Positions 3,333-53,410 of a stretch of DNA of 64,000 nt are shown in pieces (within the stretch, counting starts at the first letter, position 1; each line of letters opens with the position of its first letter). Origin of the DNA: a virus. Taxonomy: Duplodnaviria > Heunggongvirae > Uroviricota > Caudoviricetes. The notes below the pieces were generated by a model. That model searched no databases and was not told the origin of the DNA. It worked only from the letters and a program-made list of their open reading frames with translations. Where the stretch lies: the IMG/VR virus record IMGVR_UViG_3300035520_000451. One strand, given 5' to 3'. A program made the translations under genes and the position numbers.

Positions 3333-3723
3333 TTAGTTCTGCTAATTTTTTACACATATAATTAAGCATAGATTCATCAGTAAGTTTATGGGTAGCACTG
3401 TCATTATCCACCACTTCTTGCAGCAAGTCTTCTATACCTTTAATTATTTCCTTTAACTTCGGTTCATCTACAAAAGATTCTTTGTAGTTAACCTTTTGGC
3501 TGAAATCATCAAGTATTCTTTTTATATCCGATATACCATCAATAGACCAGTGACCTCCTTCTGGCAAACTTATTCTTATAAAAGGAGATACTCCATTATT
3601 TTCAGTTTCTAATTGAATGGTTTGCCAATTATCATCATCTTCACAGCAATCTCCAGGTTGGGTATATTGAGCTATTACCTTTTCAACCTCTAAACCTTCA
3701 TATTTATTCTGAAAATCAATCAT
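3319..3723 (-). CDS. hypothetical acidic protein
   Basis: ORF. Confidence 0.4.
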   Translation of the reverse strand: MIDFQNKYEGLEVEKVIAQYTQPGDCCEDDDNWQTIQLETENNGVSPFIRISLPEGGHWSIDGISDIKRILDDFSQKVNYKESFVDEPKLKEIIKGIEDLLQEVVDNDSATHKLTDESMLNYMCKKLAELIDGK

Positions 3724-5388: not shown

Positions 5389-6333
5389 TTAATGAATCCA
5401 GTGATCACTTATAGTTTTATCAGCTCCTAAAAATACATTCGGACAAAAAGGTTTTCCTCCTGCAATCATACATTTGACTAATATATCTCCAATATATTCT
5501 GCCATATCTTCTGGGCACTCTAGATTAAATTCATCATGTGCTACTACACATATTTTGACTACATTAAGTAAATTATTATCTTTTATCCAATTAAATAGTT
5601 TAATTGCAGATAATTTGAAAGCGCAGGCCCCACGATTTTGTATTCTGTAGTTTATGGATTGCTTTTCACAGTCTGATTTCCGACTAAGATAATGACTAAC
5701 ATTTCTAACAGTGTCACAATGTGGAGATTCTATTTTCATTTCTTGATAATATTGCCAATATTCAGGATCTTTACATTTCTCATGCATTTGTATAATCCAA
5801 TCTGCATCATAAATATGGGCTCTATGCTTTAGTATAGAGTTCATTAAGATATATCCTTTTTCCATTACATTTTGCCTACAATACTCTTGATATTGAGCTA
5901 CTCCTGGAAAACCCCTCATAAAATCAGAATATATCTTTTCTGCAGCTCGCAACGGAATACCTTTATTATTAGCTATAGTTTTAGCATCCCCGCCATAATT
6001 AACTGAAAACTCAATTCCTTTTGCATCCTGTCTTTGATCGTGATATAGTTCATTTATATCTTCTATTTTAGTGTCTCTGGGAATTATATTAGGATAAGAC
6101 ATATAGGCAACCAAACTATGAACATCTCCACATCCAGATTCAAATAATTCTACCATAGCTTTATCTTTAGAAACAGATGCAATAATTCTACTTTCTTGAC
6201 TTTGGTAATCACAAGAAATCCATTTATTACCTTTTTCTGAAGTAAAACATGCTCTAGTTATTTTATCATGTGGTAAATTCTGTTGGTTTAATTTATACTG
6301 ACCACCACCACTAGATACTCGCAACATTTCCAT
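5389..6333 (-). CDS. family-A DNA polymerase, C-terminal part (polymerase motifs A, B, C)
   Basis: Motif A DYQSQESRIIA (DYSQIELR-like), motif B RQDAKGIEFSVNYGG (RxxxKxxxFGxxYG), motif C VVAHDEF (HDE); start MEMLRVSS aligns to Pol I RLSSTDPNLQNIP. Confidence 0.8.
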   Translation of the reverse strand: MEMLRVSSGGGQYKLNQQNLPHDKITRACFTSEKGNKWISCDYQSQESRIIASVSKDKAMVELFESGCGDVHSLVAYMSYPNIIPRDTKIEDINELYHDQRQDAKGIEFSVNYGGDAKTIANNKGIPLRAAEKIYSDFMRGFPGVAQYQEYCRQNVMEKGYILMNSILKHRAHIYDADWIIQMHEKCKDPEYWQYYQEMKIESPHCDTVRNVSHYLSRKSDCEKQSINYRIQNRGACAFKLSAIKLFNWIKDNNLLNVVKICVVAHDEFNLECPEDMAEYIGDILVKCMIAGGKPFCPNVFLGADKTISDHWIH

Positions 6334-6368
6334 GCCGGACTATACCTCAACCTTATAACAATTACTTA

Positions 6369-7187
6369 TTACTTAGGTTCTCCGTTTCTAGTCTCTGCAC
6401 CTTCCTCAATATTAAGGCTTGGCTCAGTCTTCTGGTTTTCCCTCCCATTAACTGAATTTACGGAGTTACACTTAGCAAATTTCTCTACTAAGGGGCCGAA
6501 TTTTTCTTTCTTTCTAGACAGAAAGAAAGAGGAGTCTTTATATAAATTACAATATATTTTATATATATGTTCACCTTTAGTTACATATATATTATACCAA
6601 TGTCCACTATCTGTATTATATTCTTGTATATTTGGAGAGATATTCTCTTTTTCTAAAAACTTCTTAACTTGATTAATAAAATTAATACTTCCAGAAGTAA
6701 TAGTAAATTTAAAACAGCACTCATATCTTTTATCTTTAGTAATACTACCATCTCCATCAAAAATTCCTAATAATATATTCCAATTTATATATGGAAGCAT
6801 TAGTATGTTAGATTTTCTTGGCACTATACCATATTCAGATAAAAAGTTAACTATTTCTTTATTTTTATACTTAATATTATAATAGACATTGCCATTAACT
6901 TTAGATTTTCTTGAATTAATATTACATCGAAAACCTAAAAATTTATTATAATTTTCTATTAATTCTAAATCTTTAACTTCTAAAGCTGTACAAGTATCAA
7001 CAATACAACCATCCGAGGCTAGTATTCCAATAAAATAGTCAAATTCTGGACTGCCTATTTTATCTGTCCATGCTTGTAACGGAACAATAGCTTTCGATTT
7101 ATAAGTTCGATTAAGGGCAGTTTTTCTTAAAACAATCCCCTTATCTTTTAATTTATTTCTAATTTGATACTTAGAACAATTAAACAT
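6369..7187 (-). CDS. LAGLIDADG homing endonuclease (two-motif)
   Basis: Two LAGLIDADG-like motifs: FIGILASDGCI and LGIFDGDGSI; inserted between the two DNA polymerase parts. Confidence 0.8.
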   Translation of the reverse strand: MFNCSKYQIRNKLKDKGIVLRKTALNRTYKSKAIVPLQAWTDKIGSPEFDYFIGILASDGCIVDTCTALEVKDLELIENYNKFLGFRCNINSRKSKVNGNVYYNIKYKNKEIVNFLSEYGIVPRKSNILMLPYINWNILLGIFDGDGSITKDKRYECCFKFTITSGSINFINQVKKFLEKENISPNIQEYNTDSGHWYNIYVTKGEHIYKIYCNLYKDSSFFLSRKKEKFGPLVEKFAKCNSVNSVNGRENQKTEPSLNIEEGAETRNGEPK

Positions 7188-7377
7188 AACTGCTAATTCT
7201 CCAGTATCTTTACCTGAGTTATACTCAGATACTAAATTTTCTATTTCCTACTCAGTCCATTTTTTAATCATAATACATATATTTAATTTAAATTTATTAT
7301 ATGCAAATATAATAATTATTTAGGACAGATTAAAATAGTTAATACCTTAGAAATAAAATTAATAGAAAAATTGTAAT

Positions 7378-8682
7378 TTATGGAAATTTTTCACCTGTAT
7401 CTGTTCCAATAGAATGTAGATCAACATGAATTCTTCCAGTTACTGGATTAATAGCGTCTAACCAGTTTTGACCATAAGTAGATACAACTTTTGAGGCGGC
7501 TTGATACTTTAAAAATATAGCAAGAATAGGAAATTTATCAACTTGAGAACTAATTAACGTAGCATTAATGGACTTCTTTTCTTTTTTAGTCTTTTTATCA
7601 AAAGTTGTAACTTGTATCCCAAGAAGTTCAAATAATTTTATAACTTGAGTAGAACTACTCCAATTTATAGTGCATTGTGGCCCTATGTCATTACATTCTT
7701 CAAATAAGGATAATTGTAAATTTATAGATACAAATTTTCCTTTTATTTTATATCTGTAACACTCCATAGAATCATCTTTTTCGGGAAATCGAATAAATCC
7801 TAATGCTACTAATTTTTCTTTTTCTTTTTTATTTTTAGCATATCTATATAAATATTCTTTAGCATCTAAATCTATAACAAATTTATTTAATTGTGACTCA
7901 GCTTCTCTTAAAGAAGCTTGATCATTTTTCATTTTTTCTTTCCATTTAGAAATATCCAAATGAACTCCACAGAATTTTACATATGCTAAAAATTTAATAA
8001 ATTCACATTCAAATTCTGCAGCCTTTAAAAGATCTTGAGTAGATAATTCTTCTAGTTGCTTTTCTTTTATAGGCTCTAGCCACATTACATCCCCAGCAGC
8101 ATATACTACAACATCTTCTGTTAAACCTTCATTTATAATTTTTCCTCGAACAGTTTTGTCAATATCTACTCCAAGTCTTCTTTTTGCAGTAGCTCGTAAA
8201 GAATAAGATAATTCCCAATGTTCTTTAGTTTTTTCGTCGGGAGCAATATATTCATAACAAGAAGGTTTAATTCCATATGTCTGTACTATTTCGGTAGCTA
8301 ATACTCTAGGATACCCTAAATATATTAATTGTTCTACTACCATAGTATCATAAACATGATTGGGCCAAATATTTTGTTTATATAAAAAGGTTAAATCAAA
8401 CATTATATTATGCCCCAAGAACACTCTATCAGACTCTAGATATTCTTTTAAAATAGACTTTTCAGAAGGACTTATAGTTCTCCAATCAAATACAACTTGA
8501 TTTTCAGTACACCCTAATTGCAAAGTAAGTAATTCCTTCGTAAAACAATCTAATCCTTTAGTTTCTGTATCTAATTGTACCTCTTTTAAAGGATATAAAA
8601 TATCCATAGCCTCCTTAAAGTCTACTTCTCTATATCTTTCTGGAGAATATAGTTTTTTATCTTTACTTACTAAATAAATCAT
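7378..8682 (-). CDS. family-A DNA polymerase, N-terminal part (3'-5' exonuclease domain and thumb)
   Basis: Exo I motif LDTETKGLD; C-terminus NPVTGRIHVDLHSIGTDTG aligns to Pol I NPKTGRLHTSYHQAVTATG immediately before the motif-A region. Confidence 0.8.
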   Translation of the reverse strand: MIYLVSKDKKLYSPERYREVDFKEAMDILYPLKEVQLDTETKGLDCFTKELLTLQLGCTENQVVFDWRTISPSEKSILKEYLESDRVFLGHNIMFDLTFLYKQNIWPNHVYDTMVVEQLIYLGYPRVLATEIVQTYGIKPSCYEYIAPDEKTKEHWELSYSLRATAKRRLGVDIDKTVRGKIINEGLTEDVVVYAAGDVMWLEPIKEKQLEELSTQDLLKAAEFECEFIKFLAYVKFCGVHLDISKWKEKMKNDQASLREAESQLNKFVIDLDAKEYLYRYAKNKKEKEKLVALGFIRFPEKDDSMECYRYKIKGKFVSINLQLSLFEECNDIGPQCTINWSSSTQVIKLFELLGIQVTTFDKKTKKEKKSINATLISSQVDKFPILAIFLKYQAASKVVSTYGQNWLDAINPVTGRIHVDLHSIGTDTGEKFP

Positions 8683-8758: not shown

Positions 8759-9616
8759 TCATAATAATTCTTTTAATAAATCACTATATCTATCTCTAAT
8801 TTTTTTAATAGCTTCATGTTGAATTTGACGAACTCTTTCACATCCTATACCAAATCTACTAGCTATTTCTTCATGTTGCATAGCTTGCATACCTAAACCA
8901 TAAGACATTCTAAGAACATCTCGCTCTCTATAAGATAATTTAGATAAAACTACTTCCAATTCTTTAGATATTCCGTCTTTTATTAAAGAGGAATCTGTAG
9001 ATTCTGCATTTTCATTAGGAATAATATCTACTAGACTTCCTGCGTCTTCATCCATACTAAAAGGAGTATCTAATGATACAGACCTATTAAAAGATGCTGT
9101 TGCCAAATTAATATCATAAACAGGAATATCTAGCAAGTCCTCTAATTCTTCTGGAGAGGGTTTTCTAATATGCTCTTGTTCAAATTTAGCAGTTACTTTA
9201 TTTATTTTATTAACATTAGCAATTTGATTCATCGGAACACGTATTGTTCTACATTGATCCGATATAGCGTGCATAATAGATTGTCTTATCCACCAAACCG
9301 CATAAGAAATAAATCTAAATCCTCTAGTTTCATCATAACTTTGGGCTGCTTTTATTAAACCAATATTAGCCTCTTGTATTAAATCTACTAAAGGTAGTCC
9401 TTTATTTTGATATTGTTTGGCAACTGAAATTGCAAATCTTAAATTGGCATTTACTAATTCCTGTAAAGCCTCCTTATCTCCTTGCTTTATACGTTTGGCA
9501 AGACTTACTTCTTTATCTGCATTTATCATAGACTGCTTAGATACATCCTTGAAATATAATCCCAAGGATGCATCTTGTCTATCAGTTATTAATTGTGAAA
9601 TTTTAAAGCTCTTCAT
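8759..9616 (-). CDS. sigma-70 family RNA polymerase sigma factor
   Basis: Region 2 (LRFAISVAKQY, IQEANIGLIKAAQSYD, FISYAVWWIRQSI) and region 4 HTH (ERDVLRMSYGL...EIASRFGIGCERVRQIQHEAIKKI) recognisable. Confidence 0.8.
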   Translation of the reverse strand: MKSFKISQLITDRQDASLGLYFKDVSKQSMINADKEVSLAKRIKQGDKEALQELVNANLRFAISVAKQYQNKGLPLVDLIQEANIGLIKAAQSYDETRGFRFISYAVWWIRQSIMHAISDQCRTIRVPMNQIANVNKINKVTAKFEQEHIRKPSPEELEDLLDIPVYDINLATASFNRSVSLDTPFSMDEDAGSLVDIIPNENAESTDSSLIKDGISKELEVVLSKLSYRERDVLRMSYGLGMQAMQHEEIASRFGIGCERVRQIQHEAIKKIRDRYSDLLKELL

Positions 9617-14916: not shown

Positions 14917-15825
14917 TCATTTTGTTGCAGAACTGACTATATCTTCATCCTTCTCTTTTACAGAGTTAGGAGCCTCGCATTTCGAATCACTTGATTCTAC
15001 TCCCATTTCAGGGATAGTCGATGAACCTTCAACAGATATATTATCTGAAGCTTGGCTGCTGATTATCATCTCAGACGTTCCAGCAATTAACGAGGTGTCC
15101 TCTAAGGATTTCTCCTTAGACGCACAAAATATTTGTTCAAATTTTAATTTTTTTTCATTACACCAAATAGGTGATTTAGAATACATATATTCATACAAAT
15201 TTCGCATTTGTTTTCTACCAGAATATTCCATTGTGCAAACTTTATCACACGTAGGAGTGTTAGGATTCTTCGCTTTACTAAAATTTAATTTAGTTTTTTT
15301 AGAAACAATACCCTGTTGAATTAAAAAATCCTGTAAAGAACTTATAAATTCAGAATTGCCAGTAAAAGTAAATTTTACATTATGAACTATTCTATTTCTA
15401 TATTCTCCAGGCTTCTTTTCATTTTTTACAGTCATTACTTTACGTTTACCGTTCCAAACACAACCATCCCCGTCAAAATATCCTAAAATAAAAGAAGACA
15501 TTAATTCAATAGGAATAAAAGTTGGAAAAGTAAGAGTTAAAGATTTATTGCGGATTGCTCCTAGTTTTATCAAATCGGAACATAATTTTACACTATTAAA
15601 AGTAAGTCTATAAATATTGGGACTGTAACTCTTTATAGGATATTCGGAATTTAATGCTTTATTAATTTTTTCTAATATATCAATTCTTTCACCTAATTGA
15701 TCTAATTCTAGACAATCTTCTCGATTATACCCATCTGCATATATAAAGCCTAATATATATGCTTGTTCATGAGTTTTTAACTCATTAAAATAATTTTCAT
15801 TAAAATAGTATTTTCTAGTACTCAT
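14917..15825 (-). CDS. LAGLIDADG homing endonuclease
   Basis: ILGFIYADGY and ILGYFDGDGCV motifs. Confidence 0.8.
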   Translation of the reverse strand: MSTRKYYFNENYFNELKTHEQAYILGFIYADGYNREDCLELDQLGERIDILEKINKALNSEYPIKSYSPNIYRLTFNSVKLCSDLIKLGAIRNKSLTLTFPTFIPIELMSSFILGYFDGDGCVWNGKRKVMTVKNEKKPGEYRNRIVHNVKFTFTGNSEFISSLQDFLIQQGIVSKKTKLNFSKAKNPNTPTCDKVCTMEYSGRKQMRNLYEYMYSKSPIWCNEKKLKFEQIFCASKEKSLEDTSLIAGTSEMIISSQASDNISVEGSSTIPEMGVESSDSKCEAPNSVKEKDEDIVSSATK

Positions 15826-17051: not shown

Positions 17052-18065
17052 TTATAATTCTTTTATATGTTTAACTCGTTGTTCGACCTCCTGTTGCTTA
17101 CCAACGTTAAATGACGTCTTGTAGTCTCCGGTAAGGTAGCCTGTTACACGACGTAATCGTTTGATATTTTTACTACCGCACATAGGACAAGTATCATTCA
17201 ATTCATCAATATAACCACAGTCTTGACAAGAATCATTTGGTACATTAATGGCAAAGTATGGAATATCATGATCCATTGCATAATTAACAATCTCTTCAAT
17301 AGCTTCTGGATTATGCTTAGTAGAAGCAGGTAATTCAACATAAGTTATACAACCTGCACTACTGAAACCAGTAAGCTGTGATTCAATTTCAATTTTCTCA
17401 AATGGAGTGCATTCATGCCATACAGGTACGTGCATACTATTAGTAAAGAACTCACGTTCTGTAATTCCTGGAACTTCGCCAAATTGCTTCTTAAATTTCT
17501 GCATTGCTGTATAACACAGATTTTCAGCAGGAGTATAGTAAACACCAAAATTAAGTTTATAAGCTTCTTTGAATTCACTACATCTCTTCTTAAAGAGAGC
17601 TTCTAATTCTTTAGCTTTATCCATAATTTCTGAATCAGTGTGGTCTTTACCGAAAATAATTCTCAAAGCTTCTGATAATCCTAATTGACCAATAGCTAAA
17701 GTACCATGTTTTAATGCTGAACGGATACCTTCTTCAGGTTTATATCCATACATTACATTATTTTGATACATAAACTTAGCGGATGCAGCATCTTGACTAC
17801 ATATCCAATCAAATCGTTCAATTAGCATATCTTTTGCTTCATGAATCTTAGTATCCAACAATTCAATAAATTTATTCCATACTAAATCCTTGATATTTAC
17901 ATCTGCATTATCCATATTAGATATAGCTTGCAGTTTAGAATTCATTGCAAGTGTAGGAAGTATGATTGTAACAGGACAGATATTACCTCTACCATCTTTA
18001 AGTTGACCAAAACCATTAATATCCCAGCCATTCGCAGTTCTACACATTTTACCCAATGTCACCAT
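17052..18065 (-). CDS. nrdD: anaerobic ribonucleotide reductase NrdD, exon 2 (glycyl-radical domain)
   Basis: C-terminal Zn ribbon CQDCGYIDELNDTCPMCG and glycyl radical motif RVTGYL; MCRTANG aligns to E. coli NrdD MGCRSFLG. Confidence 0.85.
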   Translation of the reverse strand: MVTLGKMCRTANGWDINGFGQLKDGRGNICPVTIILPTLAMNSKLQAISNMDNADVNIKDLVWNKFIELLDTKIHEAKDMLIERFDWICSQDAASAKFMYQNNVMYGYKPEEGIRSALKHGTLAIGQLGLSEALRIIFGKDHTDSEIMDKAKELEALFKKRCSEFKEAYKLNFGVYYTPAENLCYTAMQKFKKQFGEVPGITEREFFTNSMHVPVWHECTPFEKIEIESQLTGFSSAGCITYVELPASTKHNPEAIEEIVNYAMDHDIPYFAINVPNDSCQDCGYIDELNDTCPMCGSKNIKRLRRVTGYLTGDYKTSFNVGKQQEVEQRVKHIKEL

Positions 18066-18331
18066 CGGAACTGACTATATGTTCATTCCTTGTTTCACAA
18101 CAAAGAGTTGTCTCTTGTTTGGAATCGGTGCTTATCTCCGATCCTACAGGGCTACACTCATCACCCTTAGTCGATACACATTCTGTACTAATATAACTAT
18201 AAGTACATTAGCACGGTCTCATCTTATTATTTACACTGCAATTATATAATAAGACCTAACCGTTAGCTTCTACGCTTAAATAGAAACACCCCTTAAGCAG
18301 GGTTAAAGAGATTTTAAATGGGCTGCAGTTT
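18066..18331 (-). other. ORF-less group-I-like intron interrupting nrdD (approximate bounds)
   Basis: 266-nt GC-richer, stem-rich segment with no ORF between two halves of one NrdD reading frame. Confidence 0.55.
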
Positions 18332-19549
18332 TCACTTACCCATTGTACTGAAATAAGTGCGAGGATCGTTTATATCATACCCTTCATTACCAGACCAATC
18401 TACATTGGCATAATTAGGGTATAACCTAAGACTCGTAACCTTAGTAGCTTCTTGGAATATATCATAATTCGGATCTCCAGGTTTTCGATTAACACCTTTC
18501 ATTAATTGAACGATACAGCACGGAAAAATCGGAGTGCTATGATGGCTACCAATACCATTCTTACTTACTTCAAGTAAAGCTAGACTAATAAGACGTCCTT
18601 CAGGTTGTGTACAAGTACCATAATTAATAGAAGTAAAAGGTAATTGATTACCACTTCTACTTTGTAGAGTATTTAAATTATGATACATACCTTCAACAGC
18701 TTGATGAATTTCTCGTTTAGTCATATCCAAAGCATATTCATAAGAATTAGGATGTTCTTTATACAAACTATCTTCTATAGACAAATCTGTTTGATCGTAT
18801 TTTTCATTACGAATGTGATCAATATACTTCAATCCAGTTCTATAATGCTTATTAAAAGATAGTCTTACATAGGGAACCATAGTCCAATCTAAATGAGTTG
18901 CAGATACACCACCAAATTGTTGTAAACTTTGTACTTGGAATATTACAGCTAATAATTGAAATGCTGTATTAATACTCTTAGCAGGTCTAACATCAGTTTG
19001 CTTTAGCTTAAACCCGTTAGCAAGTAAGTCATCTACTGGTATGCTCAAACAGTTGTGCATCCCTACAGCGTAAGAATCCAAATCATGAATGTATATTTCA
19101 TTATTTTCATGATTATGCTTAGCCATTTCAGACATACAATAATTAAGAGCATAATCTTTAGTTACAACTCTACCTGCTTCGCCAATACGTCCACCAAATG
19201 AATGCTCATCAATATTAGCATTTTGATTTTTTACATTAGAAGCTTCAAGTTTAGATTTAATACCTTTAATGAGTTTATCTTTTTCAGCACGGATCATCTT
19301 ACGTTCTTCTCTATAAAGAATATAAGCTTTAGCTACATCTGAATATCCATAATCCATTAAAAGTTCTTCAACTTGATCTTGTATATCTTCAATACTGATA
19401 TTATCCCAAATCTGGACTTCATCTACAATTTCCTCAATAGTTTTAGGGATACTTTCGTACCCACATTCTTTAAATGCTGCTGAAACTGCATTTACAATTT
19501 TACTTCTATTAAACTCAGCGGGCTCACCGTTTCTTTTTGTTACTTTCAT
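18332..19549 (-). CDS. nrdD: anaerobic ribonucleotide reductase NrdD, exon 1 (ATP-cone plus barrel)
   Basis: N-terminal ATP cone (VTKRNGEPAEFNRSKI); C-terminus ends FSTMGK, continuing into exon 2. Confidence 0.85.
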   Translation of the reverse strand: MKVTKRNGEPAEFNRSKIVNAVSAAFKECGYESIPKTIEEIVDEVQIWDNISIEDIQDQVEELLMDYGYSDVAKAYILYREERKMIRAEKDKLIKGIKSKLEASNVKNQNANIDEHSFGGRIGEAGRVVTKDYALNYCMSEMAKHNHENNEIYIHDLDSYAVGMHNCLSIPVDDLLANGFKLKQTDVRPAKSINTAFQLLAVIFQVQSLQQFGGVSATHLDWTMVPYVRLSFNKHYRTGLKYIDHIRNEKYDQTDLSIEDSLYKEHPNSYEYALDMTKREIHQAVEGMYHNLNTLQSRSGNQLPFTSINYGTCTQPEGRLISLALLEVSKNGIGSHHSTPIFPCCIVQLMKGVNRKPGDPNYDIFQEATKVTSLRLYPNYANVDWSGNEGYDINDPRTYFSTMGK

Positions 19550-28000: not shown

Positions 28001-29352
28001 TACCTTAGACTTTTCATCTAAGTTGAGAGGAAGTCCCTTTTTACAGAACTGGTCGTCTTTCAGTTATGTTATCGCCAAGTTTTTTATCTTGACTTCTATA
28101 GTTTCCTATTCACTATAGCTCAGCGTACCTTTTCATCCACTTATTTCAGTTGGGATGGAAACCACTCTTGGGACTATTTTATTCTTTTACAAGTTTCAAG
28201 TCCTACGCGTTACGGTGTTACAGACTTTTTAATTTCTGTAATTACCTCGGGATTAACATCTCAGTATTCCCCGATTTTGGTTTCTAATTATCTATATGAT
28301 TCCTCATATAGACGGCAATATTCTAAAAATTTTTCATATTTTCTCGATAAATATATTGTAGAATTTTTATAAAGTTTGCACATACTTTCATAGGCGTCCT
28401 TTCCAGTTAAATTAAAATATTTAATAATACTTTGTTGTTCTGGGTGATTAATATGTAAAGTAGGTGTTTTAGAACAAATAAATTTAATAATAGAATTTAA
28501 TATTTCATCTGTTCCTAAGACAGAAACTTCTGGGCGAGTATGCTCTTTATCATTCCAAGTTAAACAGCCGTCCCCATCCCAATATCCTCTAATAAAATGA
28601 TATATCAATTCTTTAGATTTAAATAATTCAATTCTAGGAAATTTCAAAGTTAATGATTTCTTAGGAGTACAGCCATTAACATTTAAAATATTCCATAAAT
28701 GTTTAGAATATACACTTAATCTACACCTAATTTCATCTTTATATAAAGATTGCTTATATTCTAAAAATTTAGCAAACTTTTCAAGATGTTCCAAGTCTTT
28801 GATAGATAAAGATAATTCAATTTGATATTGAGTTTTAACTTCTTTTCTTAAAGGTGAAGAACTAATAGTTCCATCAGCAAATAAAAATCCTAGCCAATAC
28901 GCTTTTTCTTCAGTATCAATTGAATCAAATATATATTCATTAAAATTCGCTTTTCCTAAAATTTTTATATCAGGATAATAAGTAGAAATATAGTCAGATA
29001 GTTCATTAGCACTAATTTTAAATTCTGACGCTAATTCTTTAATATTTGTATTAGGAAAACCTCCCAATTCAACATATTTATCAGCTGCATATTTATATTT
29101 AGCACAGGAAACTATATTCTTTCCTTTTTCTATTTTATAAAATCCTAATTCCTTAAATCTATTTATAATTATTTGTTCTGTATCTTTATAATTTCTAGTT
29201 ACTTCTGAAAGAGTTTTTTCACCTCTTAAAAGTAAGTTAATAAGATCATCAAGATTTAAATTTTTATAAAATTTCATATTTCTATATATTAATTACTATT
29301 TCCATATAAATATACGAAATATGTTTTATAAAACAAAATTAATTTTTAGATT
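28001..29352 (-). mobile_element. group-I-like intron carrying a LAGLIDADG homing endonuclease gene
   Basis: GC-richer, stem-rich 290-nt non-coding core (28001-28287) plus HE ORF, located between two halves of one phosphoesterase frame. Confidence 0.55.
28288..29277 (-). CDS. LAGLIDADG homing endonuclease
   Basis: YWLGFLFADGTI and IRGYWDGDGCL motifs. Confidence 0.8.
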   Translation of the reverse strand: MKFYKNLNLDDLINLLLRGEKTLSEVTRNYKDTEQIIINRFKELGFYKIEKGKNIVSCAKYKYAADKYVELGGFPNTNIKELASEFKISANELSDYISTYYPDIKILGKANFNEYIFDSIDTEEKAYWLGFLFADGTISSSPLRKEVKTQYQIELSLSIKDLEHLEKFAKFLEYKQSLYKDEIRCRLSVYSKHLWNILNVNGCTPKKSLTLKFPRIELFKSKELIYHFIRGYWDGDGCLTWNDKEHTRPEVSVLGTDEILNSIIKFICSKTPTLHINHPEQQSIIKYFNLTGKDAYESMCKLYKNSTIYLSRKYEKFLEYCRLYEESYR

Positions 29353-33608: not shown

Positions 33609-34144
33609 TTGTTTTTATGATAAGTCTCTAATAATTTGTAAAATAAATCAACGTCCATTACAGCTAGTGTGCCTTTACTTATAGAACCAGCTTCAGCACT
33701 TTTCTTCCATATCATTACTAATTCTCTAGGATCAGTACAGCTAGAACGAATATTAAAATAATTAGGAAAATTAGCATAGTGTTTAGCTTGAATTGCTACT
33801 TCTAATTCATTGTTAGTATCTGCAATATCCACTTTATTATTATCTAAAGCCTTACTTTCGCCTGCTGATCTACAAACTCCAGAATATCCTATAGATTTTA
33901 ATCGTTCTACGATCTCATATTCTAAATCTTTTCCTTTAGATTTAGATTTTTTAGCTCTATAATGCGCTGCAGTTTTTGGATCTAACCATTCAAATACAGT
34001 TTTATCCTTTCCTCCAGTTCCAGGTTTATTACACCGTATTTTAATAGATGCTATACTAATACCTGTTTCTAAACTAGCTTCTTCAATAGAAGAATATTCT
34101 TTACTAGTCCCACTTTTAAAAGTTGCTTTACACGATGTATTCAA
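33605..34144 (-). CDS. putative PD-(D/E)XK nuclease, Hjc-like Holliday junction resolvase with N-terminal HTH-like module
   Basis: GYSGVCRSAGES ... VDIAD ... ELEVAIQAKH resembles Hjc GxxxxRxxGS...DxxA...ExK. Confidence 0.4.
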   Translation of the reverse strand: MNTSCKATFKSGTSKEYSSIEEASLETGISIASIKIRCNKPGTGGKDKTVFEWLDPKTAAHYRAKKSKSKGKDLEYEIVERLKSIGYSGVCRSAGESKALDNNKVDIADTNNELEVAIQAKHYANFPNYFNIRSSCTDPRELVMIWKKSAEAGSISKGTLAVMDVDLFYKLLETYHKNK

Positions 34145-35151
34145 TTCTTTCTATGATTTCTTAGCCATAATACAAAACTCTTTATTAAATTTAATGTTTT
34201 ACTTCTTCCATTTTCTTTATAATAATCACTAATATCTTTTGCTCCACTTTTTCTGGGCAACCAAGTATAAATTAATTCTGGATGCTTCTTTTTTATTTTA
34301 GACATAAATGAAATTCCGGTATAATCATTATCAAATAATACTACAATATATTTAAATCTTTGTTTTAGATTTTCCAATACTGTATCTGATATAAATTGGG
34401 TTTCAGAATTAGGAGCAATAGCTGTAATGCCCATAGAATATAAGCACATACAGTCTTTCATGGATTTTGTGATTACTAATAATTTTCCTTCTTTAGGAAG
34501 TTGGTCAAATCCTTGTATTTTCTTACTGGGCCAATTTGTTATAAATCTAAAAGAAGTTCTTTTTGGAAAATAACATCTCCAAAGTTCCATACCTTGATAT
34601 TTCTTACCATAATATCCAAATATAGGACAATGTTGTTGGGATTTAGCAAAAACTTGATCATTAAGAAATATATATTTACAAGAATAAACATCAAATCTTT
34701 TTAAAATATCCAAAGTTATACCATACTTCTTCCACCATTTTAATTCTAATTCAGTGAAATCTTGTACTTCAACTTGGATTTTAGACATCTCTTTATCTTT
34801 AATTGTTACTGGATTTTCATTAATCTTTCCAGGATTCCGAGTAATAGAACTATTCTTTACAATTCCTAAATCATTTGCTATTATACGTAAAGCCTCATAG
34901 TAGGAACAACCAAACATACTTTGAACTATGCCAAATATATTTAAATGTTGTCCAGTTGCAAAATCTTTAAAAATTAATTCTCCTGATTTGTTTCTATAAA
35001 AACTACAAGTTGGTTGTTTATCTCTTCTTAAGGGAGATCTAAACAATCCATGCTTTACAGGGACTCGTAAATAATATTCCATTATTTGTTCCTCGGAAAA
35101 CCTAGAAAGTATTAATTCCTTGGTTACCTTAGTTTCAAACTGGAAATTCAT
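34141..35151 (-). CDS. DNA primase (TOPRIM domain)
   Basis: TOPRIM signatures LVITKSMKDCMCLYS (Exx) and VVLFDNDYTG (DxD). Confidence 0.6.
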   Translation of the reverse strand: MNFQFETKVTKELILSRFSEEQIMEYYLRVPVKHGLFRSPLRRDKQPTCSFYRNKSGELIFKDFATGQHLNIFGIVQSMFGCSYYEALRIIANDLGIVKNSSITRNPGKINENPVTIKDKEMSKIQVEVQDFTELELKWWKKYGITLDILKRFDVYSCKYIFLNDQVFAKSQQHCPIFGYYGKKYQGMELWRCYFPKRTSFRFITNWPSKKIQGFDQLPKEGKLLVITKSMKDCMCLYSMGITAIAPNSETQFISDTVLENLKQRFKYIVVLFDNDYTGISFMSKIKKKHPELIYTWLPRKSGAKDISDYYKENGRSKTLNLIKSFVLWLRNHRKN

Positions 35152-36918: not shown

Positions 36919-36966
36919 ATCCGTGCAACCTTATATTTTTCAATATAAGACCGACTATATCTTAAT

Positions 36967-37893
36967 TTAGATTGTATCAACAATATAATTATTACATGAA
37001 AACGATCCGTTATATTTCTTTAACCACTGATTAACAGCAGATTTAGATATACATAAATACTCAGCAACTTCTTTTTGTTCTATTAATTGAATTACTTCCT
37101 CTCCATTTTTAGTAATCTTATATTTAAATGGAGATACATACTCGGAAATATTTATTTTATCAGTTAATGCCCAAAAGAACCTTTTATATTCAGTTTTATT
37201 TTTTATGGCTTTATCCAACGCGTGGTGGCTATTTTTATTAAGGAATTGAATTACACACTTTTTACTTTCAAATTCTCTTAATAAATTTCCATATAAATCA
37301 AACTGATATATTTTAATTCCAATAGATTCTTTTTTATAAGAATCTATTTTTTCTTCTTCTGTTTTATATTTCCATATAAAACCACAAGCTGATTTAGAAT
37401 TACCATTTAATACACTATCTATATTAGTTATTGATCCGTTTAATTCAGCTGCTGCTTCAGTAATAGAATCAAAATCTTTATATTTAGTGCCATCTAAATT
37501 AAATGCTGTTATCGGTTTTTTATGGGCATTTCCTGCTCTTGTAAGAGAATCAATACTTCTTTTTTCTTTAGTTATTACACCTTTTCCTCCTTTGTCAATA
37601 TTCATTAATTTATGTCCAAGGTTTTTATAATAACTAATCCAGTATTGCTCTCTAGCTTCCCAAGCTTCTTCTGAGCATTCGTCTATTTTCTCTATAATAA
37701 CTGAGCCCCCATTTTTATATACAGAGTATATCCATTTATGAACAGGTAATCCTCTTTTTTCTGGATGGTTAGCACAGTATTTATGTTGAGAAAATCTTCT
37801 ATCTAATTTTTGAGTAGTTACTCCTACATAACGAATTTCGTCTGGCGATATGTCCGATTTAAGAACATAAAATGAATAATTATTTTGTTGCAT
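36967..37893 (-). CDS. free-standing GIY-YIG homing endonuclease (Seg-like)
   Basis: FYVLKS...IRYVGVT (GIY-YIG), RFSQH, EQYWISYY; C-terminal NUMOD/IENR-like repeats (ITAFNLDGTKYKDFDSITEAA, CGFIWKY). Confidence 0.75.
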   Translation of the reverse strand: MQQNNYSFYVLKSDISPDEIRYVGVTTQKLDRRFSQHKYCANHPEKRGLPVHKWIYSVYKNGGSVIIEKIDECSEEAWEAREQYWISYYKNLGHKLMNIDKGGKGVITKEKRSIDSLTRAGNAHKKPITAFNLDGTKYKDFDSITEAAAELNGSITNIDSVLNGNSKSACGFIWKYKTEEEKIDSYKKESIGIKIYQFDLYGNLLREFESKKCVIQFLNKNSHHALDKAIKNKTEYKRFFWALTDKINISEYVSPFKYKITKNGEEVIQLIEQKEVAEYLCISKSAVNQWLKKYNGSFSCNNYIVDTI

Positions 37894-38166
37894 ATTTTGA
37901 AATAAATTTATTATTAATAATTTACTTCAAATATACTCTAAATTTCCCGCTTTTCAAAATTAAAAAGCAAATATTTGTTTTTCAATTTTTACTCCATAAA
38001 GGATAGTCTGTGAACCTTATTCTATTTCGCCATATAGAATCTTGGCTGCTGATTGTCCAATCTTTATAATTTTTAAACATTCACGTTCATTATTACTAAT
38101 CATCGTTGTAGTTTATAAAGCTCTAAGGATGTCCCAGCAATTAACGGGATTTAAAGTCGACAATTT

Positions 38167-38439
38167 TTACTTATCGACTACGATATTCTTTATCTCCGGT
38201 CTCTTAGAGTTAACATATTTAACAATAGTAATTATATTAGAAGATTTAGAAGTTTGATACCAATTACCCTCTGGACTAGTTTTAGGATCCCATTTCTTAA
38301 AGTGCTTTTTCCAACCTCTCCAAGGAAGAGGTTTAGAAGTAGTAGAAATAATAAATGTTTCTTCCGCATTTAAATTTCTTAAACTAGAACTTTTACCTTG
38401 TCCACTTTCACCTAAAATTAATATTGTCTGCGCTGCCAT
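38167..38439 (-). CDS. small P-loop protein
   Basis: GESGQGKSS Walker A; ATG overlaps the stop codon of the helicase exon 2. Confidence 0.4.
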   Translation of the reverse strand: MAAQTILILGESGQGKSSSLRNLNAEETFIISTTSKPLPWRGWKKHFKKWDPKTSPEGNWYQTSKSSNIITIVKYVNSKRPEIKNIVVDK

Positions 38440-38753
38440 TATAATACAAAATTGTGTTTTGATTGTTTTTCTTCTGTATCTTCTTTACTATTAGCTAAAA
38501 GCCATTCGGAACTTTTATACTTTGCATAATCATAAATTTCATCTGGTTTTGGAAGTTCTGAAAATATTGAAACTGCACCATAAAAGGCACATCCTACTTC
38601 TACATCAGATTCTCCATATCTATTCTTTAAAACTGTTATACTTCTAAAATTAGCACCTAACTGTTTTATGTCATATCCTCTATAACTAGCTAATTTTTCT
38701 CTATGAGGATTAAAAATAGATATAATTATTTCCGAATCCTGGGCTGCATAATG
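38438..38753 (-). CDS. DnaB-like replicative helicase, exon 2 (not in ORF track; no Met start)
   Basis: Open frame HYAAQDSEIIISIFNP...VLKNRYGESD continues the DnaB H3/H4 region; ends at TAA overlapping the next ATG. Confidence 0.55.
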
Positions 38754-38999
38754 TTATCGTATAAGTTCTTTATCTTATACTTCTATATATTACTATATAG
38801 TTCAGACTATCTCTTTAACTTACAAATGTAAGCAGTGCCCCGCTTTCGTGGAAGATTTTATAGCTACAGCTCTACCTGTTTAGCATCACTTCTAGTCGTT
38901 AGGCGTTTTCCTTTATTTCTAAAGGATTTAGCACGGGATTGTCCTATTTAGGAGTTTCCCCGTTTAACGGAGTTTTAGGTGCGTCTAGCCCTAATTTGG
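38754..38999 (-). other. ORF-less group-I-like intron in the dnaB-like helicase gene (approximate bounds)
   Basis: About 245-nt GC-richer, hairpin-rich non-coding segment (e.g. GGTGCGTCTAGCCCTAATTTGGCGCACC) between two in-frame halves of one helicase. Confidence 0.55.
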
Positions 39000-39770
39000 C
39001 GCACCAGTATCTTTGGTATCATCAATTCTTAAGTTATTTAATCCTTCTTTTCTTCTATCCATAGAAGTAGAATTTCGATTTGCTTGCATAATTACAAGCG
39101 GACTAATTTTACATATATTTCTTAATGTTACCAAATAGGAGGATATTAAATCCATTTCTTCTTTTAGAGTACGTCCATTAGACCTTCTTACTAAACTTAA
39201 ATGGTCTATAACTACTAAATGAGTAAGTTCTTCATTACTAGGATGATATATTTTTCTACCATCTGTTTCTTCAAACTTGCCATCTTTTTCTAGTTGAGCC
39301 ATTAAGATTGTATATAAACTACTAGCATTTAATGCTTTATCATAAATAACTAAAATCTTTTCAACCTTCTGTAACCAAGGTAAACATTCTTGAGTTATTT
39401 TATAATAATCATCAGATAATTTATAATTACGTTTTCTAGAAAGAAGTTCTCCAGTAGACAACTCTATTCCATAAGTTTCAAAGATATACATACTTAATAT
39501 CTTAGCATAGATCATTTCGGCGCTCATCTCTAATGAAAAATAACTAACTTTAAAATTACCATCATCAAGATGTTCCATTAATGGTCTATATACATAAGAA
39601 TATAAAGCAAGTGAACTCTTACCACTACCAGTAGGACTAAATACTAAAGTATAAATTCCTCTAGATACTCCATCTATTATCTCTTCTAATTTTGGGAGAC
39701 CCATTGAGTATCCCCACTGCTTACCTAATCTACCTACTTCAATCTGATGAAGTAATGATTCTGCAATCAT
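38991..39770 (-). CDS. DnaB-like replicative helicase, exon 1 (RecA-like core: H1, H1a, H2)
   Basis: GLPKLEEIIDGVSRGIYTLVFSPTGSGKSS (DnaB loader-facing motif plus Walker A), Walker B VVIDHLSLV, ending DTKDTGA. Confidence 0.65.
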   Translation of the reverse strand: MIAESLLHQIEVGRLGKQWGYSMGLPKLEEIIDGVSRGIYTLVFSPTGSGKSSLALYSYVYRPLMEHLDDGNFKVSYFSLEMSAEMIYAKILSMYIFETYGIELSTGELLSRKRNYKLSDDYYKITQECLPWLQKVEKILVIYDKALNASSLYTILMAQLEKDGKFEETDGRKIYHPSNEELTHLVVIDHLSLVRRSNGRTLKEEMDLISSYLVTLRNICKISPLVIMQANRNSTSMDRRKEGLNNLRIDDTKDTGAPN

Positions 39771-40477: not shown

Positions 40478-41755
40478 TTAATATCTAAATGTAAAATCTT
40501 TTATTTTCTTTACATATGGTTCTGGTTCTTTACCATCTAATACATTATCAAGACCTTTTTCGTCTATAGTAACATATTCTGTAGTCTGGTGAGAATTAGA
40601 AAACCATTTTGTTTCTACTGTTTGGTCAATTACCAAATTAAATATCTCTGCTATCTTATCGCCTTCCTTTCTAACGACCCTACCTCTTCTTTGAACAGAT
40701 TTAGTTTCAGAGGAATCTCGTCCAAGAACAATAGCAACTGACAAACCTTTTATATCTGCACCTTCGTTGAGTTTGGCGCACGAATTTATTACACCAAAGG
40801 GCATTTCATTGAATTCTTCCAATGTTATACGACCTTTTTTCTTGCTATCTTTACCTGTGTAGACCATTCCGAGACCTATAGCCTCAGCCATTGCTACATT
40901 ATTTGAAAAAGTAATTATTTTTGCAGTTGGTCGTGCATTAATAATCTTTCTAGCAAGTTCCAGCTTCTTAGGATGATTATTTATGAAAGCTTTTCGTTTT
41001 TGAATAGTTCTCATAAAAGCAGTAGCGTGATAAGTAATGTTCTTGAATACTTGTTTACGTTGCTCTTCTGTGCCAGTTGGACACATCATATCTCTAAGTT
41101 TAGCTCTATTAATAAATCCTTTCGGGCCAATACAAGACATAGCTAGATTAAAATCAAATCCAAAAAACTCATAATGTTCTGTAAACTCTCTGTTGTATTG
41201 TTTATATACATCAATATCGTCTACATCTATTAATACTTGATATTCCTTGAATTCTGAAATCCAACCATTAGCTAAAGCTTCCTCAGTAGTAATTTTATCA
41301 ATAACAGGACAATACTTTTCCATTATTGCATGTTTATCATCTAAACGTTCAAATGTTGCTGTAAGTCCTAAAATATATCGATATCTTACTTTATGGAAGA
41401 TTTCTTTAAAGGTATCCGAGTTATAGCGATGGCATTCATCTAATACCAATATGTCAGCTTGCCAATTTCGTTTAACAACAGTGTTTATAATTTGAACCTC
41501 AGAATTATAACCCAATCCCCAGGTATCTAATTGAGGAATCCACTGTGATTTTAAATTATCTGTAGGAACAACTACTAAAATTCTTAATTCTGGGTACTTA
41601 TCTAAGACAGAACTCAAACATTTAAGAGCAGTTCTTGTTTTACCTACCCCAGTTGGAAATTCTAAGGTTCCTCTACATTTATTTTTAATCCATTTTACTC
41701 TTCCTTGTTCTTGTCGCTCGTCCCTACTTATATTAGTAAAAAGAGACTCCTGCAT
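40478..41755 (-). CDS. SF2 DEAH-type helicase (UvsW-like or type III res-like)
   Basis: Motif I FPTGVGKT, II VLDECHRY, III LTATF, VI QRRGRVVR. Confidence 0.7.
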   Translation of the reverse strand: MQESLFTNISRDERQEQGRVKWIKNKCRGTLEFPTGVGKTRTALKCLSSVLDKYPELRILVVVPTDNLKSQWIPQLDTWGLGYNSEVQIINTVVKRNWQADILVLDECHRYNSDTFKEIFHKVRYRYILGLTATFERLDDKHAIMEKYCPVIDKITTEEALANGWISEFKEYQVLIDVDDIDVYKQYNREFTEHYEFFGFDFNLAMSCIGPKGFINRAKLRDMMCPTGTEEQRKQVFKNITYHATAFMRTIQKRKAFINNHPKKLELARKIINARPTAKIITFSNNVAMAEAIGLGMVYTGKDSKKKGRITLEEFNEMPFGVINSCAKLNEGADIKGLSVAIVLGRDSSETKSVQRRGRVVRKEGDKIAEIFNLVIDQTVETKWFSNSHQTTEYVTIDEKGLDNVLDGKEPEPYVKKIKDFTFRY

Positions 41756-53341: not shown

Positions 53342-53410
53342 TTTCCTTATTGGGATTCGAACCCAAAACTCAATACTATATTGCGCTTTATCCAGTTAAG
53401 CTATAAGGAA
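53342..53410 (-). tRNA. tRNA-like gene with aberrant anticodon arm (possible pseudo-tRNA)
   Basis: Acceptor TTCCTTA/TAAGGAA, D arm GCTT-AACTGGATA-AAGC, T arm TTGGGTTCGAATCCCAA all canonical, but the 18-nt anticodon region GCAATATAGTATTGAGTT cannot form a 5-7-5 arm; 69 nt total. Confidence 0.4.

Follow-up and report, generated by a model that had tools for sequence, protein, structure and literature searches.

The DNA analysed here is a stretch of 64,000 nucleotides from a virus of the Caudoviricetes (IMG/VR record IMGVR_UViG_3300035520_000451), referred to at its full length as the window. In its gene for a DnaB-like helicase, on the minus strand, a group I intron of 252 nucleotides (nt) without an open reading frame (ORF) very probably interrupts the codon for Pro258, within helicase motif H4. 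The element is a typical phage group I intron of a familiar kind, unusual only in the C at its 5' splice site. We consider it reasonably probable that a natural lineage of phage introns splices after this C, held in an A+.C wobble with the guide sequence, and that the pair has co-evolved with the host codon (Ser UCA with U.G, Pro CCA with C.A). The analysis yielded the RNA family of the insert, its structure with covariation, an exon junction set by homology, and the deletion of an endonuclease gene.

The helicase gene lies in two parts. The ORF at 38991-39770 (minus strand) encodes 259 amino acids with Walker A (SPTGSGKSS), Walker B (LVVIDHL) and QANR motifs and ends in ...DDTKDTGAPN, an in-frame TAG (38993-38991) stopping translation two codons inside the intron. 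Downstream on the same strand, a frame bounded by an in-frame TAA (38756-38754) and the stop TAA (38441-38439) contains no ATG, GTG or TTG start. Its exon portion begins with the last two bases of the proline codon and then reads AQDSEIIISIFNP...LKNRYGESD...NFVL before the stop, whose last base, A38439, is also the first base of the ATG (38439-37) that opens the next gene. The Pro258 codon is thereby split between C38999 in exon 1 and C38746 and A38745 in exon 2; the PN closing the upstream ORF, and the Y and A heading the downstream frame, are translated intron sequence. An original prediction, made from the letters and ORF translations, had described a DnaB-like helicase divided by an ORF-less group-I-like intron, its second exon missing from the ORF track and its TAA overlapping the next ATG. 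All of this was borne out, and the ORF list of the window holds no minus-strand ORF of at least 30 amino acids in the exon 2 frame. The start-less frame that it had placed at 38438-38753 is open and without a start, with its end off by one (the stop ends at 38439), and its two exons stand with slightly different exact boundaries (38999 and 38746).

Joined, the exons gave one continuous match to Pfam DnaB_C (E 2.3e-14, profile positions 1-253 of 255, from residue 20). This match was obtained with a provisional join of 358 amino acids, DTGA/AQDSE (a slash in a protein or exon sequence marks the intron site), which was one residue too short by the uninterrupted homologues and was replaced by DTGAP/AQDSE. 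The spliced product is predicted to be a DnaB-family helicase of 359 amino acids reading ...DTGAPAQDSE.... The joined protein aligned with H. pylori DnaB (PDB 4a1f; E 1e-5) through QANR, DTGAPAQDSE and the junction, where DIKDSGGIEQDADIVLFLY stands against DDTKDTGAPAQDSEIIISIF of 4a1f in motif H4; a continuous alignment was one of the checks that the original prediction had named. The superfamily 4 features H1 (Walker A), H2 (Walker B), H3, H4 and the Arg finger all occur in the joined polypeptide, for which 835 homologues were found at E<=1e-10. DnaB_C was the sole domain in the Pfam scan, in which the N-terminal primase-binding domain of cellular DnaB was not found, and the helicase is therefore of a 'DnaB-like, C-terminal-domain-only' phage type.

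The sequence between the exons matched the group I intron model RF00028 of Rfam at 38783-39040 on the minus strand (70.3 bits against a gathering score of 50; E 8.6e-16 in the whole window; model positions 1-253 of 253), and the match was reproduced in a local run of the locus. This search, too, had been proposed as a check. The description of a GC-richer, hairpin-rich spacer was confirmed: G+C is modestly higher (36.8% at 38750-38999 against 26-31% in most flanking intervals) and the region folds better than shuffles (z = -3.26). Its length is 252 nt in place of the expected 245 or so. A conserved 17-mer, CCACGAAAGCGGGGCAC, was present in 26 contigs of IMG/VR, whose lengths range from about 4 to 282 kb; the core is common to all 26 loci, and the guide sequences and flanking exons vary. 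Twenty-three sequences of this intron family were aligned and scored against a hand-drawn P3-P9.1 structure. Paired cells made up 94.2% of the total (31-47% in slid controls), and changes on both sides were observed in 34 of 58 pairs, a result reached by none of 500 shuffles. The covarying helices are marked in Table 1; P3, P6 and P7 are invariant and hence uninformative. Helices P7.1 and P7.2 between P7 and P3' are a signature of subgroup IA, and P2 is absent. The family-wide tail GAUAACA..UG places the terminal G of the intron (omega-G, G38747) 12 nt past P9.1. A search with the family alignment (nhmmer, E 3.8e-70) found this subfamily once in the window. A megablast of the locus against INPHARED phages gave no match, and at the gathering score Rfam found no intron in the loci L001 or L002. 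In L002 (MT835492.1) the helicase appears in two tblastn pieces, and positions 3454-3520 weakly match the 3' portion of the intron family.

These features leave almost no room for an arrangement without an RNA intron, be it an intein, programmed ribosomal bypass or frameshifting, two separately translated halves, or an assembly chimera. Motif H4 of DnaB is a recognised intein hotspot, with sites a and c (Novikova et al. 2016, PMC4760082), but H4 inteins splice as protein, whereas the insert in the window carries stops in the exon frame, encodes no intein and, with covariation, fits the model of a ribozyme. Exon 2 is also without a start codon. Metagenome contigs do tend to break inside this intron repeat family; the same junction nevertheless occurs in independent assemblies and in the window.

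The exon junction was set by the homologues together with a table of P1 and P10 pairings. The closest uninterrupted homologues (P0001-P0003, 84-86% identity) read DTGAPAQDSEIIISIFNPHREKLASY at the junction, and an intron-less allele (L011), whose site is GGTGCACCTGCTCAAGAT, reads GGTGCACCT/GCTCAAGAT; the spliced mRNA must therefore be GGUGCGCCAGCCCAGGAU, with the predicted exon-exon junction ...GATACTGGTGCGC/CAGCCCAGGATTCG.... Three pairs of cuts yield this same product because CA is present at both borders. Only one of them, after C38999 and after G38747, leaves a G at the 3' end of the intron, and G38747 is the only G that fits the reading frame of the homologues. In this register P1 consists of GGUGCG with the guide bases CGCACC (38983-38978), followed by C38999 opposite A38984 and then by C38998 with G38985, and the 5' splice site falls between C38999 and C38998. 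The partner of G38985 is intron base +1, or exon-2 base +1 after the first step. P10 is formed by exon-2 AGCCC (38745-38741) with guide GGGCU (38991-38987). The related locus L003 has compensatory changes in both helices, from U-A to A-U and from G-C to A-U in P1 (GGAGCA with UGCUCU) and from A-U to G-C in P10 (GGCCC with GGGCC).

Since nearly all group I introns have a U.G pair at the 5' splice site, and several U lie within 10 nt, splicing at a canonical U was considered, either after U39003 (GGU/GCG) or after U38994 or U38993, with DTGAAQDSE, DTGAPNSQDSE or DTGAPNDSE as the product. It is very improbable. U39003 pairs with A38980 inside P1 rather than with a G and would need a 3' cut after U38748, which is not a G, and U38994 and U38993 lie in the P1 loop without guide pairing. 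The homologues also speak against it: among the 120 best-scoring, QANR was located in 91, four of which were interrupted, and in all 87 that were read exactly three residues separate the G from Q, E or N, the close ones having Pro there. The C38999 register, moreover, gives an in-frame GAPAQD in L003 (GGAGCAC/C...AAUG/CGGCCC), L006-L009 and L039 despite their different junction bases.

With splicing after C38999, the U.G wobble pair is missing and the base at -1 is a C. Positional homology gives A38984 as its partner; if A38984 is bulged, the partner is G38985. C at -1 stood opposite A in all six lineage variants of the pairing table. Column 9 of the family alignment, which pairs with the -1 base, holds G in 19 members; the only sequences with A there are those of the window, L014, L006 and L003. 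L010 and L039 likewise have C opposite A. The canonical U.G is kept in the relatives L015, L022, L028, L033 and others. An ORF-less family member occupies the same codon position (DTNSS/IEDAE) in the 51%-identical helicase of L015, L020 and L025, and at the L015 site a Ser UCA codon goes with a canonical U.G (AAUUCGU/C with GCGAAUU), as against Pro CCA with C opposite A in the window. The C is at -1 because the host codon, Pro CCA, dictates the base. In the likeliest reading, C38999 and A38984 would form a C.A wobble that keeps the helix geometry where the codon differs. The L003 change from G-C to A-U at the pair beside the splice site favours a continuous P1 helix. Another DnaB-like helicase (SGNT/VNDC), in L031 (IMGVR_UViG_7000000331_000050, reverse strand, about 539-845), carries a family member whose splice site lies in the same helicase motif, one nucleotide downstream; with omega-G respected, its C at -1 forms a Watson-Crick pair with G (GGAAUAC with GUAUUCC).

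Several points weigh against splicing at this C. The 5' splice site is non-canonical, and changes to the U.G pair reportedly reduced the activity of model ribozymes in work by Doudna in 1989, by Knitt in 1994 and by Pyle in 1994. ViennaRNA, which has no model for C.A, prefers C(-1) paired with G38985 and A38984 bulged, and for the isolated hairpin it prefers GCC paired with GGC of the P10 guide. The LAGLIDADG protein lost from this intron (see below) could have been a maturase, and the ORF-less copy might then splice poorly; self-splicing activity and independence from protein are presumed here from sequence. As to the intron itself, Rfam in 'evalue' mode on the whole window omitted the RF00028 match, which the 'gathering' run and the local 'evalue' run gave; this looks like a filter effect.

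Departures from U.G are said to have precedents. Tetrahymena C.A mutants were reportedly functional in the 1989 study of Doudna, Cormack and Szostak, according to which structure and not sequence sets the 5' splice site, and Hur and Waring are said to have described natural C.G pairs in Aspergillus nidulans mitochondrial introns in 1995. A literature search on 5' splice sites with natural C.A or C.G pairs yielded no usable report. In these non-U.G introns a C at -1 is reportedly accepted as long as the geometry of the helix is preserved; in L031 the C stands opposite G, whereas in the window it stands opposite A. Unlike the Tetrahymena mutants, the pair of the window occurs naturally, has been conserved within a phage lineage and is accounted for by the host codon, Pro (CCA) as opposed to Ser (UCA).

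The origin of the ORF-less copy can be read from its relatives. L014 has flanks 99% identical to those of the window and an intron of 1245 nt as against 252 nt; the surplus of 993 nt sits in the P1 loop, where it codes for a protein with HTH and LAGLIDADG_2 domains (the latter matched in Pfam at 3.6e-29), and the end of this ORF runs into the guide sequence and the P3 and P4 strands. The BLAST pieces of L014 and the window share 4 nt (CAAA) where the deletion occurred, and the window copy therefore arose by deletion at microhomology; the intron of the window is a recent deletion derivative of a mobile intron. No homing endonuclease is encoded in its 252 nt, whereas the sister copies L014, L010 and L039 encode the HTH and LAGLIDADG_2 protein. 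The ORF of L010 is intact (333 amino acids) and that of L003 is split (104 and 126 amino acids); the L006-L009 introns are 458 nt long and have an ORF remnant fused to exon 1 (P0090). Interruption at this helicase site was found in four of the 120 best helicase clusters (P0033, P0090, P0111 and P0115), and scans with a guide-sequence pattern added only L014 (IMG/VR) and L039 (JGI). The ORF-less 5' junction, the source of the ...APN ending, recurs unchanged in three further assemblies of Logan; it therefore represents an allele in circulation and no artefact of assembly. The Logan contigs L040-L042, from short-read assemblies of this phage, end 43-167 nt into the helicase intron, consistent with a multi-copy intron family breaking assembly graphs. 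L006-L009 also have, after an SNF2/ResIII helicase gene that is apparently cut at the locus start, a GIY-YIG/NUMOD ORF (622-1521) that may be another intron or a free-standing endonuclease absent from the window. The helicase genes of L015, L020, L025 and L002 are apparently interrupted elsewhere too: in L015 the frame opens only at ...YSKSS, just past the P-loop, where DnaB has its intein site b.

The loss of the LAGLIDADG ORF, like the non-canonical 5' splice site, would also fit a decayed intron that no longer splices, leaving a helicase pseudogene or a truncated protein of 259 amino acids in a defective or helper-dependent phage; JGI indeed calls the 259-residue exon-1 product as the 'replicative DNA helicase' gene (P0033) and misses exon 2. 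Decay is nonetheless unlikely, as every core helix of the window copy is intact and, within P7.1a and P7.2, this copy differs from L014 by compensatory changes. The frame of exon 2 stays 100% open throughout its 101 codons, its first 51 residues are 96% identical to the intron-less allele L011, and the Arg-finger region LKNRYGE is conserved. C opposite A has been kept in six diverged variants, some with an intact endonuclease gene, and the allele recurs in several samples.

A functional intron would proceed as follows. The end of exon 1, GGUGCGC, would pair with the internal guide sequence to form P1, and exogenous guanosine bound at P7 would attack the bond after C38999. The guide bases GGGCU would then align exon-2 AGCCC as P10, the terminal G38747 would take the G site, and exon ligation would give the mRNA for the helicase of 359 amino acids. 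For such splicing, the exact recovery of the reading frame of the homologues is indirect support. The parent intron carried the HTH-LAGLIDADG homing endonuclease in its P1 loop. The window copy is no longer self-homing, yet by its position it covers and thereby protects the endonuclease target site; it may persist because precise loss is rare and the cognate endonuclease target is blocked.

Table 1. Coordinates of the helicase exons, the intron and its structural elements, and the second intron in the window.
Feature	Position	Strand	Remarks
Helicase exon 1	38999..39770	-	ATG 39770-39768 to C38999; residues 1-257 and first base of the Pro258 codon
Helicase exon 2	38439..38746	-	stop TAA 38441-38439 included
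Predicted group I intron, 252 nt, without ORF	38747..38998	-	first base C38998, last base G38747 (omega-G)
P1, 5' strand	38998..39005	-	exon GGUGCGC (39005-38999) and intron base C38998
Internal guide sequence GGGCUAGACGCACC	38978..38991	-	pairs with exon 1 end and exon 2
P3	38972-38968 / 38842-38838	-	encloses P4-P6a; invariant
P4	38963-38958 / 38938-38933	-	covaries
P5	38953-38950 / 38945-38942	-	covaries
P6	38932-31 / 38904-03	-	invariant
P6a, GAAA loop	38926-38920 / 38915-38909	-	covaries
P7	GACUA 38897-38893 / UAGUC 38809-38805	-	encloses P7.1-P8; invariant
P7.1	38892-89 / 38854-51	-	covaries, compensatory changes
P7.1a	38884-82 / 38865-63	-	covaries, compensatory changes
P7.2	38878-76 / 38869-67	-	covaries, compensatory changes
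P8	38832-28 / 38823-19	-	covaries, compensatory changes
P9, GUAA loop	38800-38794 / 38789-38783	-	covaries, both-side changes in 3 pairs
P9.1	38780-74 / 38765-59	-	covaries, both-side changes in 7 of 7 pairs
3' tail GAUAACAUUAUG	after P9.1, ends at omega-G 38747	-	tails compared across the family
Second group I intron, 1251 nt	36922..38172	-	in AAA ATPase like crAss 'ATP_43b'; separate from the helicase intron

Comparison with known systems places the intron near those of T4-type phages (nrdD/sunY, td and nrdB; subgroup IA2). Both are group I introns in phage genes of DNA or nucleotide metabolism, with P7.1/P7.2 between P7 and P3' and a stop codon just inside the intron. The nearest annotated relative in blastn was the intron region of nrdD (sunY) in T4-like phages, with 75-77% identity to intron positions 22-115; the matching nrdD genes carry a homing-endonuclease ORF. 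Unlike the T4-type introns, the window intron lies in a DnaB-family helicase gene and has no ORF, no P2, and C at -1. The T4 introns hold a GIY-YIG or HNH endonuclease in P6, P7 or P9, whereas the ancestor of the window intron had a LAGLIDADG endonuclease in the P1 loop.

The gene order around the helicase is SNF2 helicase (40478-41755), an ORF of 206 amino acids, the DnaB-like helicase, an AAA ATPase and a primase (34141-35151). The replication block of crAss-like gut phages likewise runs SNF2, DnaB, AAA ATPase and primase (PMC7886860). The primase of the window is 36-39% identical to those of crAss-like phages, and the genome is of the crAss-like gut phage kind. Yutin et al. (2021, PMC7886860), who detected introns by their endonuclease domains, reported that group I introns are dense in the Delta and Zeta crAss-like groups, also in ATP_43b. 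An ORF-less intron like that of the window would escape such a survey because it has no endonuclease domain.

ATP_43b is the counterpart of the second intron host in the window, an AAA ATPase in two pieces (38439-38173 and 36921-36499; intact homologues have 231 amino acids). The second intron encodes a GIY-YIG/NUMOD/HTH endonuclease (Pfam; ORF 37893-36967). Rfam gave two partial RF00028 matches to it, at 37989-38142 (28.5 bits) and 36933-36965 (24.6 bits), both below the gathering score. As read from the sequence, its P1 is GUCGAU with GUCGAC and has a canonical U.G, its omega-G is at 36922, and the junction is IVVD/DLQYTMSFEY. L003 carries the same intron (6694-7084).

Other genes of the window are also interrupted. 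The nrdD gene is split (19549-18338 and 18044-17052) by an ORF-less insert of 293 nt at 18045-18337 on the minus strand, with P1 AAUGGGU paired to GCCCAUU with a U.G, P7 CGACUAAGG...AUAUAGUCAG, omega-G 18045 and the junction STMG/CRTAN. Rfam gave no RF00028 match to this insert at E<=0.1; read by eye, it is a probable group I intron missed by the standard model. A family A DNA polymerase (5389-8682, minus strand) consists of the ORFs 7378-8682 (exonuclease and polymerase profile positions 29-119) and 5389-6333 (profile positions 127-379), between which lies a LAGLIDADG_3 ORF (6369-7187); Rfam found no group I match in this gap. Further ORFs with LAGLIDADG domains (Pfam), at 14917-15825 and 28288-29277 on the minus strand, may mark additional introns or free-standing endonucleases. 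A complete sigma-70 family gene (regions 1.2, 2, 3 and 4) at 8759-9616 on the minus strand adjoins the polymerase gene and was unexpected in a crAss-like replication module. A fifth tRNA at 53342-53410 on the minus strand (50.9 bits) was reported by Rfam in 'evalue' mode only and was absent from the gathering-mode Rfam run and from ARAGORN. Since this 'evalue' run is the one that omitted the 70-bit intron match, the two modes of Rfam disagree.

The 64-kb window thus holds at least three group I introns, of which that in nrdD is probable, and one more split gene. Since ORF-less introns are invisible to surveys based on endonuclease domains, the intron load of crAss-like phages is probably underestimated, and one consequence for annotation is that the helicase of this phage group is called as a truncated protein of 259 amino acids with exon 2 missed. 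Near-identical genomes that differ in having or lacking the endonuclease ORF document one step of the homing cycle, the loss of that ORF, together with the microhomology used for the deletion. The conserved C opposite A at the cleavage site offers a natural test case for how group I ribozymes recognize the splice-site pair. If the proposed pairing is correct, the C.A lineage would be the natural counterpart of the rule drawn in vitro in 1989, and the coding constraints of an exon would have reshaped the active-site pair of a ribozyme.

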